From the sequence record PZ334583.1: DNA of 45,069 bases; one strand, 5' to 3'. Shown here one piece after another: positions 1 to 29,153 of the stretch. Source of the stretch: a phage. A model generated the notes under the pieces. It searched no databases. It saw only the letters and a list, made by a program, of their open reading frames with translations, and was not told where the DNA came from. Within the stretch, counting starts at the first letter, position 1. The number at the start of each line of letters is the position of its first letter. A program made the position numbers and the translations under genes.

Positions 1-1899
1 ATGGCAAAGGCTAGAGAATCACAGGCAGAGGCATTAAAGCGGTGGGAAAACCTTAAAGAACTACAAGACACTTTTAAATATACAGCGGAAGGTTTGCTTC
101 TCTTTGCAGATACAGTTATCCATAACTTAATTGCAGGCAACCCTCATCTGATTCGTATGCAGGCTGATATCTTGAAGTTCCTATTTTACGGACACAAGTA
201 CCGCCTCATCGAAGCGCCTCGTGGTATCGCTAAGACAACACTATCAGCAATCTATACGGTATTCCGTATTATTCATGAACCGCATAAGCGTATTATGGTT
301 GTGTCCCAAAACGCCAAGCGAGCAGAGGAAATCGCAGGTTGGGTAGTTAAAATCTTCCGTGGCTTAGACTTTCTTGAGTTTATGCTGCCGGATATCTACG
401 CTGGGGACCGTGCATCCGTTAAGGCGTTTGAGATTCATTACACCCTACGTGGTAGTGATAAGTCTCCTTCTGTATCCTGTTACTCAATCGAAGCAGGTAT
501 GCAGGGTGCTCGTGCTGATATTATTCTAGCGGATGACGTAGAGTCGATGCAGAATGCTCGTACGGCAGCGGGCCGTGCCTTGCTTGAGGAGCTGACTAAG
601 GAGTTTGAATCTATCAACCAGTTTGGGGATATCATTTACCTTGGTACACCTCAGAACGTAAACTCTATCTACAACAACCTACCTGCTCGTGGTTACTCTG
701 TTCGTATCTGGACTGCGCGTTACCCTTCAGTAGAGCAAGAGCAATGTTATGGCGACTTCCTTGCACCTATGATTGTTCAAGATATGAAGGACAACCCAGC
801 ACTTCGCTCAGGGTACGGGTTGGATGGTAATAGTGGTGCACCTTGTGCCCCTGAAATGTATGATGATGAAGTCCTGATTGAGAAGGAAATCTCTCAGGGT
901 GCTGCTAAGTTCCAGCTTCAGTTCATGCTTAACACTCGCATGATGGATGCTGACAGATACCCATTACGCCTGAACAATCTAATCTTCACCTCGTTTGGTA
1001 CAGAGGAAGTCCCTGTGATGCCTACGTGGAGTAATGATTCCATAAACATCATTGGTGATGCACCTAAGTATGGTAACAAGCCTACGGATTTCATGTACAG
1101 ACCTGTAGCTCGCCCATATGAATGGGGTGCTGTCTCCCGCAAGATTATGTATATCGACCCTGCGGGTGGTGGTAAGAACGGAGATGAGACGGGTGTAGCC
1201 ATCGTATTCCTGCACGGCACATTCATTTATGTGTATCAGTGCTTTGGTGTACCTGGCGGATACCGAGAGTCGTCCCTGAATCGCATTGTGCAGGCCGCAA
1301 AGCAGGCGGGTGTTAAAGAGGTATTCATTGAGAAGAACTTTGGTCATGGCGCGTTTGAGGCGGTAATTAAGCCGTACTTTGAACGAGAGTGGCCTGTAAC
1401 TCTGGAAGAGGATTACGCCACCGGACAGAAAGAGTTGCGTATCATTGAGACGCTGGAGCCGCTCATGGCAGCACATAGGCTTATCTTCAATGCAGAGATG
1501 GTGAAGTCAGACTTTGAGTCGGTACAGCACTATCCGCTTGAACTACGCATGTCCTACAGTCTTTTCAATCAAATGTCGAACATAACGATTGAGAAGAACA
1601 GCCTCCGGCACGATGACCGCCTAGACGCCCTGTATGGCGCTATACGGCAATTAACTTCTCAGATAGACTATGACGAGGTTACACGGATTAATCGCCTCAG
1701 AGCGCAGGAGATGCGAGATTACATCCATGCTATGAACACACCTCATCTACGCAGGGCAATGCTATATGGGGATTACGGTACTGAGCGAAGAGTGACCAAC
1801 ACTTCCGTAGCGATGCAGCAGCGAGTTTACGGGCAGAACTACCGAAATAAATCGGCAAGCAGAAATACACTTTCTGCAAGGATTTCAAGGACTTATTAA
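1..1899 (+). CDS. terL: Terminase large subunit (T7 gp19-like); its ATG and first 14 nt are also present at 45056..45069
   Basis: 632-aa ORF; N-terminal sequence recognised as T7-group large terminase; position upstream of the tailspike genes as in SP6/K1-5-type genomes; RBS AAGGAG at 45042..45047. Confidence 0.93.
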   Translation: MAKARESQAEALKRWENLKELQDTFKYTAEGLLLFADTVIHNLIAGNPHLIRMQADILKFLFYGHKYRLIEAPRGIAKTTLSAIYTVFRIIHEPHKRIMVVSQNAKRAEEIAGWVVKIFRGLDFLEFMLPDIYAGDRASVKAFEIHYTLRGSDKSPSVSCYSIEAGMQGARADIILADDVESMQNARTAAGRALLEELTKEFESINQFGDIIYLGTPQNVNSIYNNLPARGYSVRIWTARYPSVEQEQCYGDFLAPMIVQDMKDNPALRSGYGLDGNSGAPCAPEMYDDEVLIEKEISQGAAKFQLQFMLNTRMMDADRYPLRLNNLIFTSFGTEEVPVMPTWSNDSINIIGDAPKYGNKPTDFMYRPVARPYEWGAVSRKIMYIDPAGGGKNGDETGVAIVFLHGTFIYVYQCFGVPGGYRESSLNRIVQAAKQAGVKEVFIEKNFGHGAFEAVIKPYFEREWPVTLEEDYATGQKELRIIETLEPLMAAHRLIFNAEMVKSDFESVQHYPLELRMSYSLFNQMSNITIEKNSLRHDDRLDALYGAIRQLTSQIDYDEVTRINRLRAQEMRDYIHAMNTPHLRRAMLYGDYGTERRVTNTSVAMQQRVYGQNYRNKSASRNTLSARISRTY

Positions 1900-1920
1900 T
1901 TACTGGACACTATAGAAGGA
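1898..1920 (+). promoter_or_regulatory. Phage RNAP promoter (SP6-like), putative +1 G at 1915
   Basis: aattactggacactatagaagga; matches the 13-copy consensus ATTTACYGGACACTATAGAAG; overlaps the terL stop. Confidence 0.8.
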
Positions 1921-2055
1921 AGGCCCAGATAATAAGATAAATAATAGGTAATATATAGGTTAACCTAGGTTATATAGGTATGCCTTAATATGGGTGTACT
2001 CCTGTACACCCTCTTCTTTACTACCTTACTATATTTACATAATAGGAGAGAGACA

Positions 2056-2337
2056 ATGGCTAATGATTATAGTAGTCAACCATTAACAGGTAAGTCTAAG
2101 AGAAAGCAGGTACAACCTGTAAGTGAAGAACTAATGCTTCCGGTAATCAAAAAAGAGGAAGCTAGTAAGAAAAGCAATGTCATTAATGATGCCACCAAAT
2201 CAGGTAAACAGAAAGGGGCCATGGTGTGCCTTGAAGTGGAAGGTGGTGTATTGGAGATTGCTATCGCGGTTGATGGCAAAGAAGATTCAGAGTGGAAGTT
2301 AGTAACAGTGGAACCAGCTGTTATTAAACCAGTTTAA
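2056..2337 (+). CDS. Hypothetical late protein, paralog A of a tandem pair
   Basis: ATG 2056 with RBS AGGAG 2044..2048; shares the motif SGKQKGAMVxLE...IAxA...W with the next ORF. Confidence 0.6.
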   Translation: MANDYSSQPLTGKSKRKQVQPVSEELMLPVIKKEEASKKSNVINDATKSGKQKGAMVCLEVEGGVLEIAIAVDGKEDSEWKLVTVEPAVIKPV

Positions 2338-2355
2338 GATAAGGAGGAAGATTAC

Positions 2356-2649
2356 ATGGCTAAATATGGTACTACAGGTTCTGTTACTGGTCAGGCTTTT
2401 CGAGTAAAAGCAGTACAAACTATTGCAACGGCAATTCCTATGCCTGTTGTTAAGGAAGTAGACCTTAAGAAGAAAGACCACCCTATCAACATCAAACACT
2501 TATCAGGTAAACAGAAAGGTGCAATGGTTGCTCTTGAGAAAACTGACACAACCATGCATATTGCTGTTGCACGTGGCAGTGAACCCACAGACCCATGGGA
2601 TGTAACTGGTATGGAAGGTGACGCTGTTACTCCGGCAGGTGGAGAATAA
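2356..2649 (+). CDS. Hypothetical late protein, paralog B of a tandem pair
   Basis: ATG 2356 preceded by AAGGAGGAAG; contains LSGKQKGAMVALE, paralogous to 2056..2337. Confidence 0.65.
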   Translation: MAKYGTTGSVTGQAFRVKAVQTIATAIPMPVVKEVDLKKKDHPINIKHLSGKQKGAMVALEKTDTTMHIAVARGSEPTDPWDVTGMEGDAVTPAGGE

Positions 2650-2993
2650 TGCTTAACAAATACTTCAAGCGTAAAGAGTTCGCTTGCCGTTGTGGGTGCG
2701 GTACATCCACTGTTGATGCTGAATTACTACAGGTAGTCACAGATGTGCGTGAGCACTTTGGTTCTCCTGTAGTTATCACTTCGGGGCACCGCTGTGCTAA
2801 GCACAATGCTAATGTAGGAGGAGCTAAGAACTCCATGCATCTTACTGGTAAGGCTGCTGACATTAAAGTTACTGGTATTGGGCCAATGGAGGTTCGTGCA
2901 TACCTGTGCAATAAATACCCCGATAAATATGGTATTGGTGCTTATCCTACTTTCACTCATATTGATGTGAGGGATAATAAAGCACGATGGTAA
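2649..2993 (+). CDS. Endolysin, peptidase M15 family (putative L-alanyl-D-glutamate or D-Ala-D-Ala peptidase)
   Basis: 114 aa; motifs FKRKEFACRCGCG, SGHRC..HN, MHLTGKAADI typical of zinc M15 cell-wall peptidases; TAATG overlap with the upstream gene. Confidence 0.8.
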   Translation: MLNKYFKRKEFACRCGCGTSTVDAELLQVVTDVREHFGSPVVITSGHRCAKHNANVGGAKNSMHLTGKAADIKVTGIGPMEVRAYLCNKYPDKYGIGAYPTFTHIDVRDNKARW

Positions 2994-3101
2994 GATGCAT
3001 TGAATGGTGTGAGCGCATGGTTGCTAAGGCTTCAGAGGAAGGTAATTATGAAGATTGGCAGAACTACTCAACTTTATTAGCACAATGGAAAGGGAGGTGC
3101 A

Positions 3102-3251
3102 ATGAAAAAGCTGTTCAAATCTAAGAAGGTTGTAGGTGCACTAGTTGCATTGGCAATTGCTCTTGTTTCTGTAGGTCTTGGTGTAGACCTTGGCTCTGGC
3201 ACGGAATCCTCTGTGACAGATGTGGTCTGCCAAGTGATCACCTGTGAATAA
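3102..3251 (+). CDS. Small membrane protein (49 aa) in the lysis cluster
   Basis: ATG 3102 with RBS GGGAGG; N-terminal KK followed by hydrophobic helix VVGALVALAIALVSVGLG; not in the ORF track (<60 aa). Confidence 0.4.
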   Translation: MKKLFKSKKVVGALVALAIALVSVGLGVDLGSGTESSVTDVVCQVITCE

Positions 3252-3465
3252 GTTTCTAGAAGTTCTGGCAGGTCTTATTGGCCTGCTTGTCTCTGCTAAG
3301 AAGAAACAAGAAGAGAAGGAGGCACAAAGTGAAGCGAATCATGTTAGTGACAACCCTTCTGATTGGTTCGCTGACCACTTCCGGGTGTCAGCAGGCGTTA
3401 CCAGAGAAAGCAATGGTGAAACCTCTGAGGCCGACGCTGACGGAAGTTTACGAGGTAGACGATAA
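3244..3465 (+). CDS. Putative i-spanin-like protein (N-terminal TM helix then charged region)
   Basis: GTG start; FLEVLAGLIGLLVSA then KKKQEEKEAQ; overlaps the lipoprotein ORF in another frame (Rz/Rz1-like arrangement); short for an Rz, weak RBS. Confidence 0.3.
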   Translation: MNKFLEVLAGLIGLLVSAKKKQEEKEAQSEANHVSDNPSDWFADHFRVSAGVTRESNGETSEADADGSLRGRR

Positions 3466-3538
3466 GGTCTGCTTTAGTAAGCCTGACGCTACAAAATTAG
3501 GTTTGTATATTCTTTCGCTGGAACGCGGATATAATTAA
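3329..3538 (+). CDS. Putative o-spanin (Rz1-like outer-membrane lipoprotein)
   Basis: RBS AAGGAGG 3314..3320 then GTG 3329 (or ATG 3341); lipobox LTTSGC; Pro-containing mature region with a second Cys; overlaps 3244..3465 in a different frame. Confidence 0.45.
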   Translation: MKRIMLVTTLLIGSLTTSGCQQALPEKAMVKPLRPTLTEVYEVDDKVCFSKPDATKLGLYILSLERGYN

Positions 3539-3567: not shown

Positions 3568-3590
3568 ATTTACTGGACACTATAGAAGAG
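3568..3590 (+). promoter_or_regulatory. Phage RNAP promoter, putative +1 G at 3585
   Basis: gatttactggacactatagaagag, perfect consensus, upstream of tailspike 1. Confidence 0.85.
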
Positions 3591-3669
3591 ATAAGATAGC
3601 GCCGTTCTTTTGAGCGGCCTATTACTAGCCAATCTTCATAGGGAGGGTTGGAAAGTAATAGGAGATAGT

Positions 3670-5568
3670 ATGGCTAAATTAACCAAACCTAATACTGAAG
3701 GAATCTTGCATAAAGGACAATCTTTGTATGAGTACCTTGATGCGAGAGTTTTAACATCAAAGCCGTTTGGTGCTGCAGGTGACGCCACTACTGATGATAC
3801 GGAGGTTATAGCTGCTTCATTAAACTCTCAGAAAGCTGTCACAGTCTCAGATGGTGTATTCTCTAGCTCTGGTATTAATAGTAATTACTGTAACTTAGAC
3901 GGTAGGGGTAGTGGCGTGCTAAGTCACCGTTCCAGTACAGGTAACTACTTAGTATTTAACAATCTACGTGCAGGTCGCTTAAGTAATATTACGGTAGAAA
4001 GTAATAAGGCGACTGATACAACTCAGGGACAGCAGGTATCTCTTGCTGGTGGAAGTGATGTTACTATAAGTGACGTTAACTTCTCAAACGTTAAAGGTAC
4101 TGGTTTCAGTTTAATAGCATGCCCTAATGGTGAGCAACCTAACGGGCTTATGATTAAAGGCATTCGAGGTAGCTACTCCGGCTATGCTACTAATAAGGCC
4201 GCTGGATGCGTACTTGCTGACTCCTCAGTTAACTCTCTCATAGATAACGTCATTGCTAAGAGCTATCCTCAGTTTGGAGCTGTAGAGCTGAAAGGTACAG
4301 CCAGTTATAACATAGTAAGTAATGTTATAGGGGCAGATTGCCAACATGTAACTTACAACGGCACTGAAGAGGTAATAGCTCCTTCTAATAACCTTATCAA
4401 GGGTGTGATGGCTAATAATCCTAAGTATGCAGCGGTTGTTGCAGGCAAAGGAAGTACGAACTTAATCTCAGACGTGCTCGTAGATTACTCAACTTCTGAT
4501 GCTAGGCAGGCTCATGGTGTTACCGTAGAAGGGTCTGATAACGTCATAAATAATGTTCTTATGTCAGGATGTGATGGTACTAACTCTTTAGGACAAAGGC
4601 AGACTGCTACAATTGCACGCTTTATAGGTACAGCTAATAACAACTATGCGTCTGTATTTCCTAGCTACAGTGCTACAGGTGTTATTACTTTCGAATCCGG
4701 CTCTACCCGTAACTTCGTAGAGGTAAAGCACCCTGGCAGGAGAAATGACCTTCTCAGTTCTGCTAGTACTATTGACGGTGAAGCTACTATTGACGGCACT
4801 AATAATAGTAACGTAGTGCACGCACCCGCCTTAGGGCAGTACATAGGTAGTATGTCAGGTAGGTTCGAATGGCGGATTAAGTCCATGTCACTACCTTCAG
4901 GCGTTCTTACTTCGGCTGATAAGTACAGAATGCTTGGGGATGGTGCTGTGTCATTCGCTGTAGGTGGGGGCACTTCTTCTCAAGTTCGCCTATTTACTTC
5001 TGATGGTACTTCTCGGACAGTGTCCCTCACCAACGGTAACGTGCGTCTTTCTACCAGTAGCACAGGATATTTGCAGTTAGGTTCTGATGCAATGACCCCA
5101 GATAGTACTGGTACATACGCATTAGGTTCCGCCAGTAGAGCATGGTCTGGCGGTTTTACTCAATCAGCATTCACTGTTGTCTCAGATGCTAGGGATAAAA
5201 CAGAGCCCCTTATTATCTCAGATGCTTTACTGGATGCTTGGTCTGAAGTTGACTTTGTGCAGTTTCAGTACTTGGACCGAATTGAGGAGAAGGGTGCAGA
5301 CTCAGCTAGATGGCACTTCGGTATCATCGCTCAGCGAGCTAAGGAGGCTTTCGAACGTCACGGTATAGATGCACACCGCTACGGCTTCTTGTGCTTCGAC
5401 AGTTGGGATGATGTATACGAGGAAGATGCCAATGGCTCTCGTAAACTGATTACACCAGCAGGTTCCCGCTACGGTATTCGTTACGAGGAAGTACTGATAT
5501 TAGAGGCTGCATTGATGCGACGGACTATTAAGCGTATGCAGGAAGCACTAGCTGCCATTCCTAAGTAA
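3670..5568 (+). CDS. Tailspike 1: beta-helix capsule depolymerase-like with C-terminal intramolecular chaperone (peptidase S74) domain
   Basis: ATG 3670 (MAKLTKPNTEG...) with RBS GGAG; Ser/Thr/Gly/Asn-rich repetitive body typical of a beta-helix; C-terminus VSDARDKTEP...WHFGIIAQ...GIRYEEV matches the auto-cleaving chaperone domain of endosialidase and K5-lyase tailspikes. Confidence 0.9.
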   Translation: MAKLTKPNTEGILHKGQSLYEYLDARVLTSKPFGAAGDATTDDTEVIAASLNSQKAVTVSDGVFSSSGINSNYCNLDGRGSGVLSHRSSTGNYLVFNNLRAGRLSNITVESNKATDTTQGQQVSLAGGSDVTISDVNFSNVKGTGFSLIACPNGEQPNGLMIKGIRGSYSGYATNKAAGCVLADSSVNSLIDNVIAKSYPQFGAVELKGTASYNIVSNVIGADCQHVTYNGTEEVIAPSNNLIKGVMANNPKYAAVVAGKGSTNLISDVLVDYSTSDARQAHGVTVEGSDNVINNVLMSGCDGTNSLGQRQTATIARFIGTANNNYASVFPSYSATGVITFESGSTRNFVEVKHPGRRNDLLSSASTIDGEATIDGTNNSNVVHAPALGQYIGSMSGRFEWRIKSMSLPSGVLTSADKYRMLGDGAVSFAVGGGTSSQVRLFTSDGTSRTVSLTNGNVRLSTSSTGYLQLGSDAMTPDSTGTYALGSASRAWSGGFTQSAFTVVSDARDKTEPLIISDALLDAWSEVDFVQFQYLDRIEEKGADSARWHFGIIAQRAKEAFERHGIDAHRYGFLCFDSWDDVYEEDANGSRKLITPAGSRYGIRYEEVLILEAALMRRTIKRMQEALAAIPK

Positions 5569-5653: not shown

Positions 5654-7837
5654 ATGCTACAAAGATTAGGGGCAATGTTTGTTCGGTATAAAAATAAAGT
5701 AGGTAATGCTATCGAGCGTACACTACAAAGTAAATTACAGGATGTAGTCAGTGTAAAGGACTATGGCGCCATTGGTGATGGGGTATATCGTTCACTTGGT
5801 GATAAATTTACCACGTTAAGTATCGCACAAGTAGTATACCCACATGCTGAAAGTTTAACTCAATCGCAAGATTGGGCGGCTATTCAGGCTGCACTTAATT
5901 CTCACTCAAAAGTGTACATTCCAGCAGGTAGATACATGCTATCTGATACCATTGAGATGAGCGGAGGTCAAACTCTGCAAGGTGACGGTATTGACTCTTG
6001 GGTTGCAGGTTATGCTGGGTTTGTACAAGATAGGCAAGGCACTCACCTTATAATGGTGGGAGATGGCAATAAGAAGTATACATTAGATCATGTATCTAAC
6101 TTCGATGTAGAAGGTGGTGTCATAGACAACCCAGCTAAGAGTGATTCTTATACTGCCACTGCACCTTCCCCTAATTACTCATTTACTAACTTCACTAATG
6201 CTAACGCCTCTGGTGCACAACGTGCTACATTGAAACCTTTCAGCGTAGCATTACGTTGCACAGGTCACGGTGGTGTTTACCTTCGTGACTTCCGTATTGT
6301 GCCTAATCACAGAGGGCAAGAAGGTTATAAGGATGAGTTGTCAACTGCATTAGGGGACGCATGGGATGTAGGTATTTGGCTGGAGAATACATCTGACTCA
6401 GTGTTATCTTCTGTGCAAGCAGTAGGTTACTGGCGCATTGCAGGTGTTATGAAGACTTGTATACCACAAGATGGTTCCTTTGTTGGTGGAGAGCGTGATA
6501 GGATATACAATTGCACATTACAAGGTTATCGTGGCTTCTTAGCACGTTCGCATGATACTTACCAAGTAGAAGAAGTATCAGGTAACACTGTATCGATTAA
6601 GTGGTCTGCATCTCACACTTTCGAACCTTCTGGTAAAGTTCGTATCCAAGGGAAAGACCGTAGTTATACTAGCCTGTCTGTATCTGGTGACAAATTAGTT
6701 TTCACTGGTATTGACGATGTATCAGATATTAATACCAAGAGCTATGTGAGAGTTTCAGGGTCTTCATTCGGAATGTCTGCTACTCAACTAAATAACACAT
6801 ACATCGCTGCATTAAACCATCATGCTCGCTTGCCAGCGACCTCTAATCTTTTAGATAATAGGTTTTCTACTTCGGCAGCTTGCTATGAAGTTGCAGGTGA
6901 ACCAATTCGTGCCATAAAATTATCTAACTGTACTGTCATTACTTGGGATGACATCTTAGGTATGACTGGTGGTATTAGGGACTTCCAGACGACAGATACT
7001 TACTTCGAGTCTCAGCCTTTCCGTACTTCTGTGCAAGGCTTGGCAAGCACCACACAACCTGCTGGTTCTCGCATGATTGCACTTCGTGGACGTCAAGGTT
7101 CTAAAACTACAGGCTATCAAGCTATCGGTTGTACTTATGGGCCGGGTGTAGACCTAAGCCCTCGTTATGAAAGCGATGTATCTCGTTACACAACTTCCGG
7201 TGGTATGTTCAATCCAAGAGAAGATTTGAACACAACTAAGCAGTTACCAATGAGGCAAGACGCTACTGAGCTATCTTCTACTTCTGGCTTATTCCTTACA
7301 CATGCTGTAGGTGGGAAGGCCTATGTTGGCGCTACCTCTGGTGATGCAACGCTTCAATCTAGAACTGGATCATTGAATATCCAATCAGGACTTCGTGTAC
7401 GCATTGGTGGCACTGATGGTAGTGGTTGGTATATTGCTGACAGTGCTAAGTTGACACCTACTGCTGACAATGCAAGGGCTTGTGGACAACCTAATGGACG
7501 ATGGACTGTTGTCTATGCTGTTAATGGTACAATCCAGACTTCTGATGGTAGATTCAAGGAAATCCTTGAGATTGAACAGGCAGAACTTGATGCTGGTCTT
7601 GAATTATCAGCAAACCTAATTAAGTATCGGTGGAATGGGGAAGATAAAATTCACTTTGGTTGCATAGCACAAGAAGTGATGTTAATCCTGGAGAAACATG
7701 GCCTAAACCCATTACAATATGATATGGTTCAGTATGATGAGGAGGCAGACATCTTTGGGGTAAACTATGCTGAACTCAACAGCTTCTGTATTGCAGCATT
7801 ATCGAGGAAGTTAAATGCCATTAATCAGATCAGTTAA
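5654..7837 (+). CDS. Tailspike 2: pectate-lyase-like beta-helix with C-terminal intramolecular chaperone (peptidase S74) domain
   Basis: 727 aa; RBS AAAGGAGG; VKDYGAIGDG motif (pectate_lyase_3-type beta-helix N-cap); C-terminus TSDGRFKE...IHFGCIAQ...GVNYAEL is the S74 chaperone. Confidence 0.9.
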   Translation: MLQRLGAMFVRYKNKVGNAIERTLQSKLQDVVSVKDYGAIGDGVYRSLGDKFTTLSIAQVVYPHAESLTQSQDWAAIQAALNSHSKVYIPAGRYMLSDTIEMSGGQTLQGDGIDSWVAGYAGFVQDRQGTHLIMVGDGNKKYTLDHVSNFDVEGGVIDNPAKSDSYTATAPSPNYSFTNFTNANASGAQRATLKPFSVALRCTGHGGVYLRDFRIVPNHRGQEGYKDELSTALGDAWDVGIWLENTSDSVLSSVQAVGYWRIAGVMKTCIPQDGSFVGGERDRIYNCTLQGYRGFLARSHDTYQVEEVSGNTVSIKWSASHTFEPSGKVRIQGKDRSYTSLSVSGDKLVFTGIDDVSDINTKSYVRVSGSSFGMSATQLNNTYIAALNHHARLPATSNLLDNRFSTSAACYEVAGEPIRAIKLSNCTVITWDDILGMTGGIRDFQTTDTYFESQPFRTSVQGLASTTQPAGSRMIALRGRQGSKTTGYQAIGCTYGPGVDLSPRYESDVSRYTTSGGMFNPREDLNTTKQLPMRQDATELSSTSGLFLTHAVGGKAYVGATSGDATLQSRTGSLNIQSGLRVRIGGTDGSGWYIADSAKLTPTADNARACGQPNGRWTVVYAVNGTIQTSDGRFKEILEIEQAELDAGLELSANLIKYRWNGEDKIHFGCIAQEVMLILEKHGLNPLQYDMVQYDEEADIFGVNYAELNSFCIAALSRKLNAINQIS

Positions 7838-28943: not shown

Positions 28944-29153
28944 ATGGGTGTTGTAAAGAAAGCATTTAAGGCTATCGGTCTTGCTCAAGATGCACCACGT
29001 ATTGAAGCCAAAGTACCAGCACAGCAGCTTGAGCGTAAGCCTGAGACTGAAGCTGAAGATATTCAAATTGGTGCAGATGGTGATGATGCGACTGCATCTG
29101 CAAAAGGTAAGCGCGGCCTTGTCCGTCCGGTAGCTTCTAGCTTGAAGGTGTGA
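28944..29153 (+). CDS. Small protein (69 aa) upstream of the portal gene
   Basis: RBS AAGGAG; ORF track. Confidence 0.55.
   Translation: MGVVKKAFKAIGLAQDAPRIEAKVPAQQLERKPETEAEDIQIGADGDDATASAKGKRGLVRPVASSLKV

Follow-up and report, generated by a model that had tools for sequence, protein, structure and literature searches.

INTRODUCTION

Phage K1-5 (Autographiviridae, Molineuxvirinae, Vectrevirus) carries two long-known, uncharacterised small genes, 41 and 42, and phage SP6 carries three genes of the same family (42, 43 and 44 in the numbering of NC_004831). These K1-5 and SP6 genes have been annotated solely as hypothetical proteins or as "acetyl-CoA acetyltransferase". Virion association has been reported for the homologs of Klebsiella phage Kp7 only. 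In a 2024 preprint, bands from silver-stained SDS-PAGE of purified Kp7 virions were identified by mass spectrometry, and gp32, gp45, gp46 and gp47 were listed as minor capsid proteins (bioRxiv 10.1101/2024.05.19.594906). The GenBank record ON148527 names gp45 "minor capsid protein" and gp47 "minor capsid protein with Ig-domain", a label that may rest only on mass spectrometry and BLAST. When the literature was searched for proteomic or cryo-EM studies of K1-5, K1E or SP6 virions that mention these genes, only the Kp7 preprint proved relevant.

Lambda gpD, T4 Soc, phage L Dec and phi29 gp8.5 are small trimeric accessory proteins of the capsid surface, some of them with outward domains. They resemble the genes described here by functional analogy only. 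T5 pb10 and T4 Hoc have a capsid-binding plus Ig-like layout that is echoed by Kp7 gp47 and by another homolog, P0280; the anchor domain of the present family is nevertheless unrelated to the pb10 and Hoc anchors. Within Autographiviridae, the phiKMV-like phage Ar-KM has a capsid decoration protein, gp55, and a spike, gp54 (bioRxiv 10.64898/2026.05.18.726046). By their gene numbers, both can be placed near the right genome end, beyond the packaging genes. Ar-KM gp55 forms four-helix-bundle dimers at capsomer interfaces and differs from the present family in fold, symmetry and family.

Here we analysed a phage DNA of 45,069 nucleotides (record PZ334583.1; the whole stretch is called the window), in which two adjacent small ORFs lie at positions 2056-2649. 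Over region 1850-3300, the DNA of the window shows 96% identity to Escherichia phage 6948 and 91.8% to phage K1-5. The window belongs to a Vectrevirus, a K1-5-like coliphage. The two ORFs are direct orthologs of K1-5 genes 41 and 42, and their products are termed gp41 and gp42. The annotators of phage LL11 had flagged both genes earlier as "most likely a duplication region". New in this work are the triple-repeat fusions of the domain, a compact structural model, the surface-domain fusions, the variable post-terminase gene array and the rejection of the enzyme name.

RESULTS

Organization of the locus

The pair and its surroundings comprise the following features of the window (strand given where assigned):

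1-1899, large terminase (TerL), upstream neighbour of the ORF pair
1898-1918, plus strand, SP6/K1-5-type phage RNA polymerase promoter directly after the TerL stop, driving the gp41 and gp42 genes
1992-2011, plus strand, stem-loop (8-bp stem, 4-nt loop) followed by a U-rich run in the gene 41 5' leader, from a terminator-like scan
2044-2048, plus strand, Shine-Dalgarno AGGAG of the gene 41 homolog, 7 nt upstream of the ATG at 2056, read from the sequence
2056-2337, plus strand, gp41 (93 aa), the K1-5 gene 41 homolog and first of the two paralogs from the phrog_2725 domain family
2341-2347, plus strand, Shine-Dalgarno AAGGAGG of the gene 42 homolog, 8 nt upstream of the ATG at 2356, read from the sequence
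2356-2649, plus strand, gp42 (97 aa), the K1-5 gene 42 homolog and second of the two paralogs from the phrog_2725 domain family
2649-2993, plus strand, Peptidase_M15_3 endolysin (Pfam PF08291, E = 4.2e-33; phrog_894 "endolysin")
3102-3251, holin
3244-3465, phrog_9219 ORF, overlapping the Rz-like spanin ORF
3278-3538, Rz-like spanin ORF, overlapping the phrog_9219 ORF

An earlier sequence-only reading had described the pair as the first genes after a late promoter at 1898 and as immediately preceding the endolysin, and both statements are borne out. The promoter core GACACTATAGAAG matches exactly at 1906-1918, 14 core sites with at most two mismatches were observed in the window against 1.4 expected, and the element is conserved in K1-5, VEc3, G9, LL11, UKE1, SP6, Kp7 and PP1. 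The endolysin gene starts at 2649, overlapping the stop codon of gp42, and forms the downstream edge of a variable slot. Beyond it follow a 45-aa ORF, the holin and Rz-like spanin genes, and two large tailspike-like ORFs.

The leader hairpin of the window, GGGTGTAC-TCCT-GTACACCC, sits downstream, not upstream, of the promoter at 1898-1918. Kp7 (GGGTACTC-TACA-GAGTACCC) and Pectobacterium phage PP1 (GGGAC-TACA-GTCCC) carry hairpins in the same place with different stem sequences, and by sequence comparison the stem differences are read as compensatory changes. The hairpin may be a terminator of read-through terminase transcripts or a stabilising 5' structure.

Other features of this end of the window were also observed. 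The lysis cassette (2987-3538) shows dense overlaps, and its 45-aa ORF (phrog_1312, function not known) overlaps both the 3' end of the endolysin gene and the 5' start of the holin gene. The two tailspike-like ORFs (3610-5568 and 5654-7837) are preceded by a second exact promoter core at 3576-3588, and their translations share a C-terminal HFG-IAQ motif reminiscent of endosialidase-type self-cleaving chaperone domains.

Gp41 and gp42 are full-length paralogs

The two ORFs of 93 and 97 aa, which had been proposed to be paralogous, each have a Shine-Dalgarno site and proved to be real paralogs over their full length at the positions first given for them. In a BLASTP alignment of gp41 residues 1-92 with gp42 residues 1-93, 34% of positions were identical and 55% positive, and there was a single gap (E = 3e-15). 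The local alignment score of 131 compares with 26.9 +/- 5.0 (maximum 55) for 5000 shuffles (z = 20.8). After removal of the 9-mer SGKQKGAMV, the N-terminal flanks still outscored 5000/5000 shuffles and the C-terminal flanks all but 46 of 5000, so the similarity is not confined to the motif. A chance resemblance limited to this motif, named at the outset as one finding that would refute the observation, is ruled out by these flank tests.

Both proteins matched phrog_2725 over their full length (gp41, E = 2.6e-37; gp42, E = 1.6e-44) and have its core residues: the TG and basic residues of the N-terminal arm, P30, N45, S-G-K, A72 and W81. An alignment of 31 sequences from the two ortholog groups has 13 invariant columns (M1, T11, G12, R16, P30, N45, S50, G51, K52, Q53, A56, A72 and W81) spread over the whole protein, and N45, K52 and W81 are invariant across 86 diverse single-domain family members. 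A six-frame HMM scan of the window found no family copy besides gp41 and gp42, which excludes a hidden third copy there.

Searches yielded 100 homolog clusters for gp41, with identity down to 48%, and 106 for gp42. We computed dN/dS among six Vectrevirus genomes, also as a test of coding, and obtained 0.69 for gene 41, 0.36 for gene 42 and 0.16 for the endolysin gene. The corresponding synonymous divergences were only 0.06 for gene 41, 0.18 for gene 42 and 0.46 for the endolysin gene, and the gene 41 ratio is noisy because so little synonymous divergence underlies it. The ratio for gene 42 clearly points to coding; for gene 41, coding status is supported by conservation down to the identity given above with core residues kept. 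The low synonymous divergence of gene 41 may reflect nucleotide-level constraint, or a recent sweep or recombination over the terminase end and gene 41.

The duplication predates the divergence of Molineuxvirinae genera

Gp41 is 44% identical to Kp7 gp45, 40% to PP1_43 and 34% to SP6 gp42, against 34% to its neighbour in the window. Window gp42 is 47% identical to Kp7 gp46, 49% to SP6 gp43 and 46% to PP1_45. Judged by these sequence identities, either window copy resembles the gene in the corresponding position of other genera more than the one beside it. Separate orthologs of both lineages are already present in SP6, Kp7 and PP1, which have three copies each. By this comparison, the split predates the divergence of the Molineuxvirinae genera. 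The sequence-only reading had taken the pair for a recent tandem duplication, and the cross-genus identity matrix overturns this, the two copies being just 34% identical. It had also called such a duplication unusual in a compact T7-like genome; across T7-like phages, the TerL-endolysin slot carries 1-7 copies of the domain. The gp41/gp42 pair is real, conserved and ancient, and ordinary for its phage group.

A T7-like phage domain family with variable architectures

An exhaustive search of 1.84 billion representative proteins, with a profile built from gp41 and gp42, recovered 234 relatives at E <= 1e-3. Domains were delimited in 152 representative homologs, made up of the new proteins among the 150 best matches and some members of their clusters. 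The family domain of about 85 aa was seen alone, as three repeats in a chain of about 270 aa, or fused ahead of other domains. One domain was delimited in 114 proteins, three tandem domains in 35 (chains of about 260-300 aa) and two detectable domains in 11, mostly of about 270 aa too. Triple repeats predominate among the fused forms; copy numbers of 1, 2 and 7 also occur.

Several members carry a further domain at the C-terminus. The Sf6 tail-needle knob (PF16532) is fused in this way in P0273 (E = 1.7e-30) and in P0338 of Ralstonia phage Reminis (E = 5e-43), and an Ig/I-set domain in P0280. Other C-terminal extensions on single-domain members are unassigned beta-rich domains, and some triple-repeat proteins have one additional C-terminal domain. 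Scans of IMG/VR viral contigs with P0208, P0279 and a broad alignment yielded either no confirmed loci or no conserved stretch that could be used, and a word-indexed protein search with a broad profile gave no new names.

All genomic contexts recovered were T7-like (Autographiviridae) genomes, and the family lay directly after the large terminase in 8 of 9. In the exception, contig L005, the gene with the knob fusion comes after two tailspike-like genes close to the start of the contig, and the retrieved stretch holds no terminase. A post-terminase location was found in the window, K1-5, SP6, Kp7, PP99, PP1, JSF38, Reminis and contigs L004, L015, L016 and L017. SP6 differs from the window in having three copies and an unrelated small gene ahead of the endolysin. 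The remaining arrangements after the large terminase were:

Contig L004, two triple-repeat genes of 279 and 389 aa, the longer one with an extra domain
Contig L015 (metagenomic), family genes of 93, 94 and 236 aa
Contig L016, six family genes with seven domains and an embedded fibre-like gene
Contig L017, a 376-aa multi-repeat gene
PP99 and Vibrio phage JSF38, a knob protein, then a single-domain gene
Ralstonia phage Reminis, a bare copy after the terminase, with a domain-knob fusion after the tailspike gene

The knob and the family domain are encoded by adjacent genes in PP99 and JSF38 and as a single chain in Reminis and contig L005; this split versus fused state suggests that the knob protein and the domain protein interact physically.

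Two of the metagenomic loci showed further peculiarities. In the T7-like contig L004 (10001-12416), two small ORFs with lipoprotein-like signals lie between the two triple-repeat genes. In the SP6-like contig L016 (5346-8565), the terminase-endolysin slot has grown to seven genes; its family genes include one two-domain chain and one 233-aa extended copy, and the C-terminus of its 251-aa fibre-like gene product resembles, by eye, an S74-type intramolecular chaperone domain.

Predicted fold and candidate assembly

The gp42 monomer model reached a pLDDT of 69, with the conserved N-terminal 17 residues disordered. For the triple-repeat homolog P0208, an AlphaFold2 model built with 34 aligned sequences reached a pLDDT of 89.3 and a pTM of 0.85, and each of its repeats was modelled as short helices plus four to five strands. 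The family domain is accordingly predicted in these models to be a small beta-barrel in which a conserved N-terminal arm is combined with two short helices and four to five strands. P0208 is modelled as a single fixed compact body, because a three-domain chain reaches a pTM of 0.85 only with one fixed arrangement. From the pTM alone, this body may be pictured as a compact pseudo-trimer whose conserved arms touch neighbouring domains.

One-to-one orthology of fused repeats 1, 2 and 3 with three paralog types was considered and dropped, the HMM scores being too close. With one copy in PP99, two in the window and seven domains in contig L016, a strict three-paralog heterotrimer cannot be the rule throughout the family.

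Foldseek comparison of the gp42 monomer model with the PDB gave no informative match. Against BFVD, it returned family members and weak matches only, to pectate-lyase and SGNH-esterase proteins. A PDB sequence search with the family profile and Kp7 gp47 left the anchor domain without a match. Likeness to the folds of solved decoration proteins (lambda gpD, T4 Soc, the OB-fold of phage L Dec, the T5 pb10 N-domain and the beta-tulip) was not found.

The "acetyl-CoA acetyltransferase" name

RefSeq names K1-5 genes 41 and 42 "acetyl-CoA acetyltransferase", phrog_2725 bears the same name, and the name is attached to homologs of about 95 aa in many records, such as those of K1-5 (1712-2299 of the retrieved locus) and SP6 (1922-2535). 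The name itself, in phrog_2725 and in the RefSeq products of K1-5, SP6 and many other phages, is the whole case for regarding gp41 and gp42 as thiolases, a reading that is almost certainly wrong. Thiolases are about 390 aa long, whereas these proteins have only 93 and 97 aa and a predicted small beta-barrel fold. No thiolase or acetyltransferase model of Pfam or NCBIfam matched gp41 or gp42 even at E <= 1, and the PDB returned no sequence match. The enzyme annotation is ruled out by the length of the proteins and by the absent Pfam and NCBIfam matches. The earliest use of the name that we found is a BLAST-based table for phage UAB_Phi78 from 2016 (PMC4837284). In phage VEc3, the gene 41 homolog is called a "Sema domain-containing protein", a name without support.

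Kp7 homologs point to a virion role

Kp7 gp45-47 match the family HMM at 72-93 bits. Like the window pair, they occupy a slot between TerL and an M15 endolysin and share a similar promoter and hairpin leader; the Kp7 counterpart of gene 41 is gp45, and that of gene 42 is gp46. Unlike the window, with its two bare copies and no Ig domain, Kp7 has a third paralog, gp47, that carries a C-terminal Ig-like domain. This domain matches the PDB "Decoration protein" chains 8zvi and 5lxk, which we take to be T5 pb10, at E of about 1e-16. Virion presence is shown for the Kp7 proteins, not for the window phage. The other small Kp7 protein listed as a virion "minor capsid protein", gp32 (bioRxiv 10.1101/2024.05.19.594906), also has a homolog in the window, at 28944-29150, just upstream of the portal gene and with 61% identity.

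The function first proposed for the pair was either lysis regulation or a virion or late accessory role. The latter fits the evidence, because the Kp7 homologs, at 44-47% identity, were found in purified virions; the former is unsupported, as no lysis family was matched and the fusion partners known elsewhere are virion-surface domains. Neither gp41 nor gp42 matched a lysis family in PHROGs or Pfam, while neighbouring ORFs matched holin and Rz-like spanin families, and by inspection both proteins are hydrophilic with no long hydrophobic stretch seen in either.

The broader view that gp41 and gp42 are non-structural late proteins, acting as a lysis-timing regulator, an assembly chaperone or an anti-defence factor, with Kp7 virion detection due to carry-over, appears improbable. 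It draws on the position of the genes directly upstream of the endolysin-holin-spanin cassette, on the high dN/dS of gene 41 within Vectrevirus (about 0.7), on contig L017, where anti-defence-like genes lie nearby, and on the fact that no structure localises the family on the virion. Against it, gp41 and gp42 gave no lysis, defence or anti-defence match in PHROGs, Pfam or NCBIfam, and the lack of a long hydrophobic stretch counts in the same direction. Across relatives, moreover, the locus keeps to the large terminase rather than to the lysis genes: Reminis has a copy after its tailspike gene, and the family genes of L004 are split by the two lipoprotein-like genes. Ig and knob fusions would make little sense on a cytoplasmic regulator, and all three Kp7 paralogs were present in virion bands.

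Capsid or tail location

The reading we favour, with modest confidence, is that gp41 and gp42 are late, abundant outer-virion accessory proteins with a trimer-forming anchor domain, most likely on the capsid. The late promoter and the strong ribosome-binding sites would suit late virion accessory proteins. The fusion partners of the family, the Sf6 knob and Ig/I-set domains, are typically virion-surface domains and argue for a virion role. Compared with Kp7, the capsid, portal and terminase proteins of the window are 73-77% identical (major capsid protein 75%) and gp41 and gp42 44-47%; such faster divergence than that of core structural proteins would fit exposed accessory proteins. Units of three recur, as triple-repeat chains (35 of the 152 homologs) and as three genes in SP6, Kp7, PP1 and contig L015, and this counts for a trimer. 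The weak monomer model of gp42 and its disordered N-terminal arm would be expected of a subunit that needs partners. By analogy, Ar-KM gp54 and gp55 may serve as a precedent for capsid accessory genes past the packaging genes.

The choice of the capsid is less secure. PDB entry 7y3t (Kp7 capsid) includes the Kp7 major capsid protein as an identical chain, but gp45-47 have no matching chain there or elsewhere in the PDB; the capsid location is therefore asserted rather than documented. A decoration that is ordered and stoichiometric would normally be expected in the 7y3t capsid model, and this counts against the capsid. Repeat position in the fused proteins also lacks a clean mapping to paralog type.

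A tail or neck location, in which the proteins would form a trimeric socket on the adaptor, nozzle or collar for accessory fibres and the bare copies would be spacers, is the main rival but rather unlikely. The knob and Ig domains and the weak tailspike-like matches in BFVD (pectate-lyase and SGNH-esterase proteins) are equally typical of tail proteins and fit such a socket just as well. However, all structural matches to tail proteins were below significance, no PDB tail complex holds a family member, and the Kp7 authors, from whose laboratory we take the Kp7 capsid and fibre structures to have come, annotate capsid, not tail. The Kp7 proteins also gave visible gel bands, and hundreds of copies would account for these more readily than 6-18.

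DISCUSSION

Our analysis establishes the paralogy of gp41 and gp42, their family membership, the domain architectures and synteny of the family, and the age of the duplication. For their function, the favoured outer-virion reading would work as follows. Homologs of genes 41 and 42 would be expressed late, and the domain family appears specific to T7-like (Autographiviridae) phages. The domain would form trimers on the virion exterior, with the capsid shell as the most likely site; these would be homotrimers, heterotrimers of paralogs or, where one chain holds three repeats, pseudo-trimers. In many relatives, it would act as an anchor bearing a display domain (Ig-like, Sf6-type needle knob or another beta-rich domain). 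Both window copies are bare anchors and would therefore be decoration or cement subunits rather than adhesins. We infer trimer formation, a capsid rather than tail location, and any stabilising role.

A more specific proposal, which is possible and which we put forward only tentatively, is that the family is a previously undescribed capsid-anchoring module of T7-like phages. Its conserved N-terminal arm would lock a trimer at three-fold or quasi-three-fold sites, and gp41 and gp42 would form a mixed bare trimer. Whether built from separate paralogs or from fused repeats, this trimer would provide a universal socket by which the phage head could present Ig domains, knobs or enzymes. The mixed trimer of K1-5-like phages would contain gp41 and gp42 at 2:1 or 1:2. 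If this is true, the fold would be new among decoration proteins, and therapeutic K1/K5 capsule phages would come with a display platform ready for use.

The findings leave current understanding of phage biology unchanged, and the family fold has no solved relative. They bear directly on annotation: through RefSeq and PHROGs, the unfounded acetyltransferase name now stands in the genomes of dozens of therapeutic phages of the SP6 and K1-5 type, and in the safety screening of candidate phages it can be mistaken for that of a metabolic gene. Lambda gpD and T4 Soc and Hoc have been used for display and tagging. If gp41 and gp42 are non-essential outer virion subunits, they would lend themselves naturally to display or tagging on phages of the K1-5 and SP6 type. 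The terminase-endolysin slot is a hot spot in which an anchor domain has been duplicated, triple-fused or joined to varied surface domains, and it offers a compact system for studying the evolution of accessory virion proteins.
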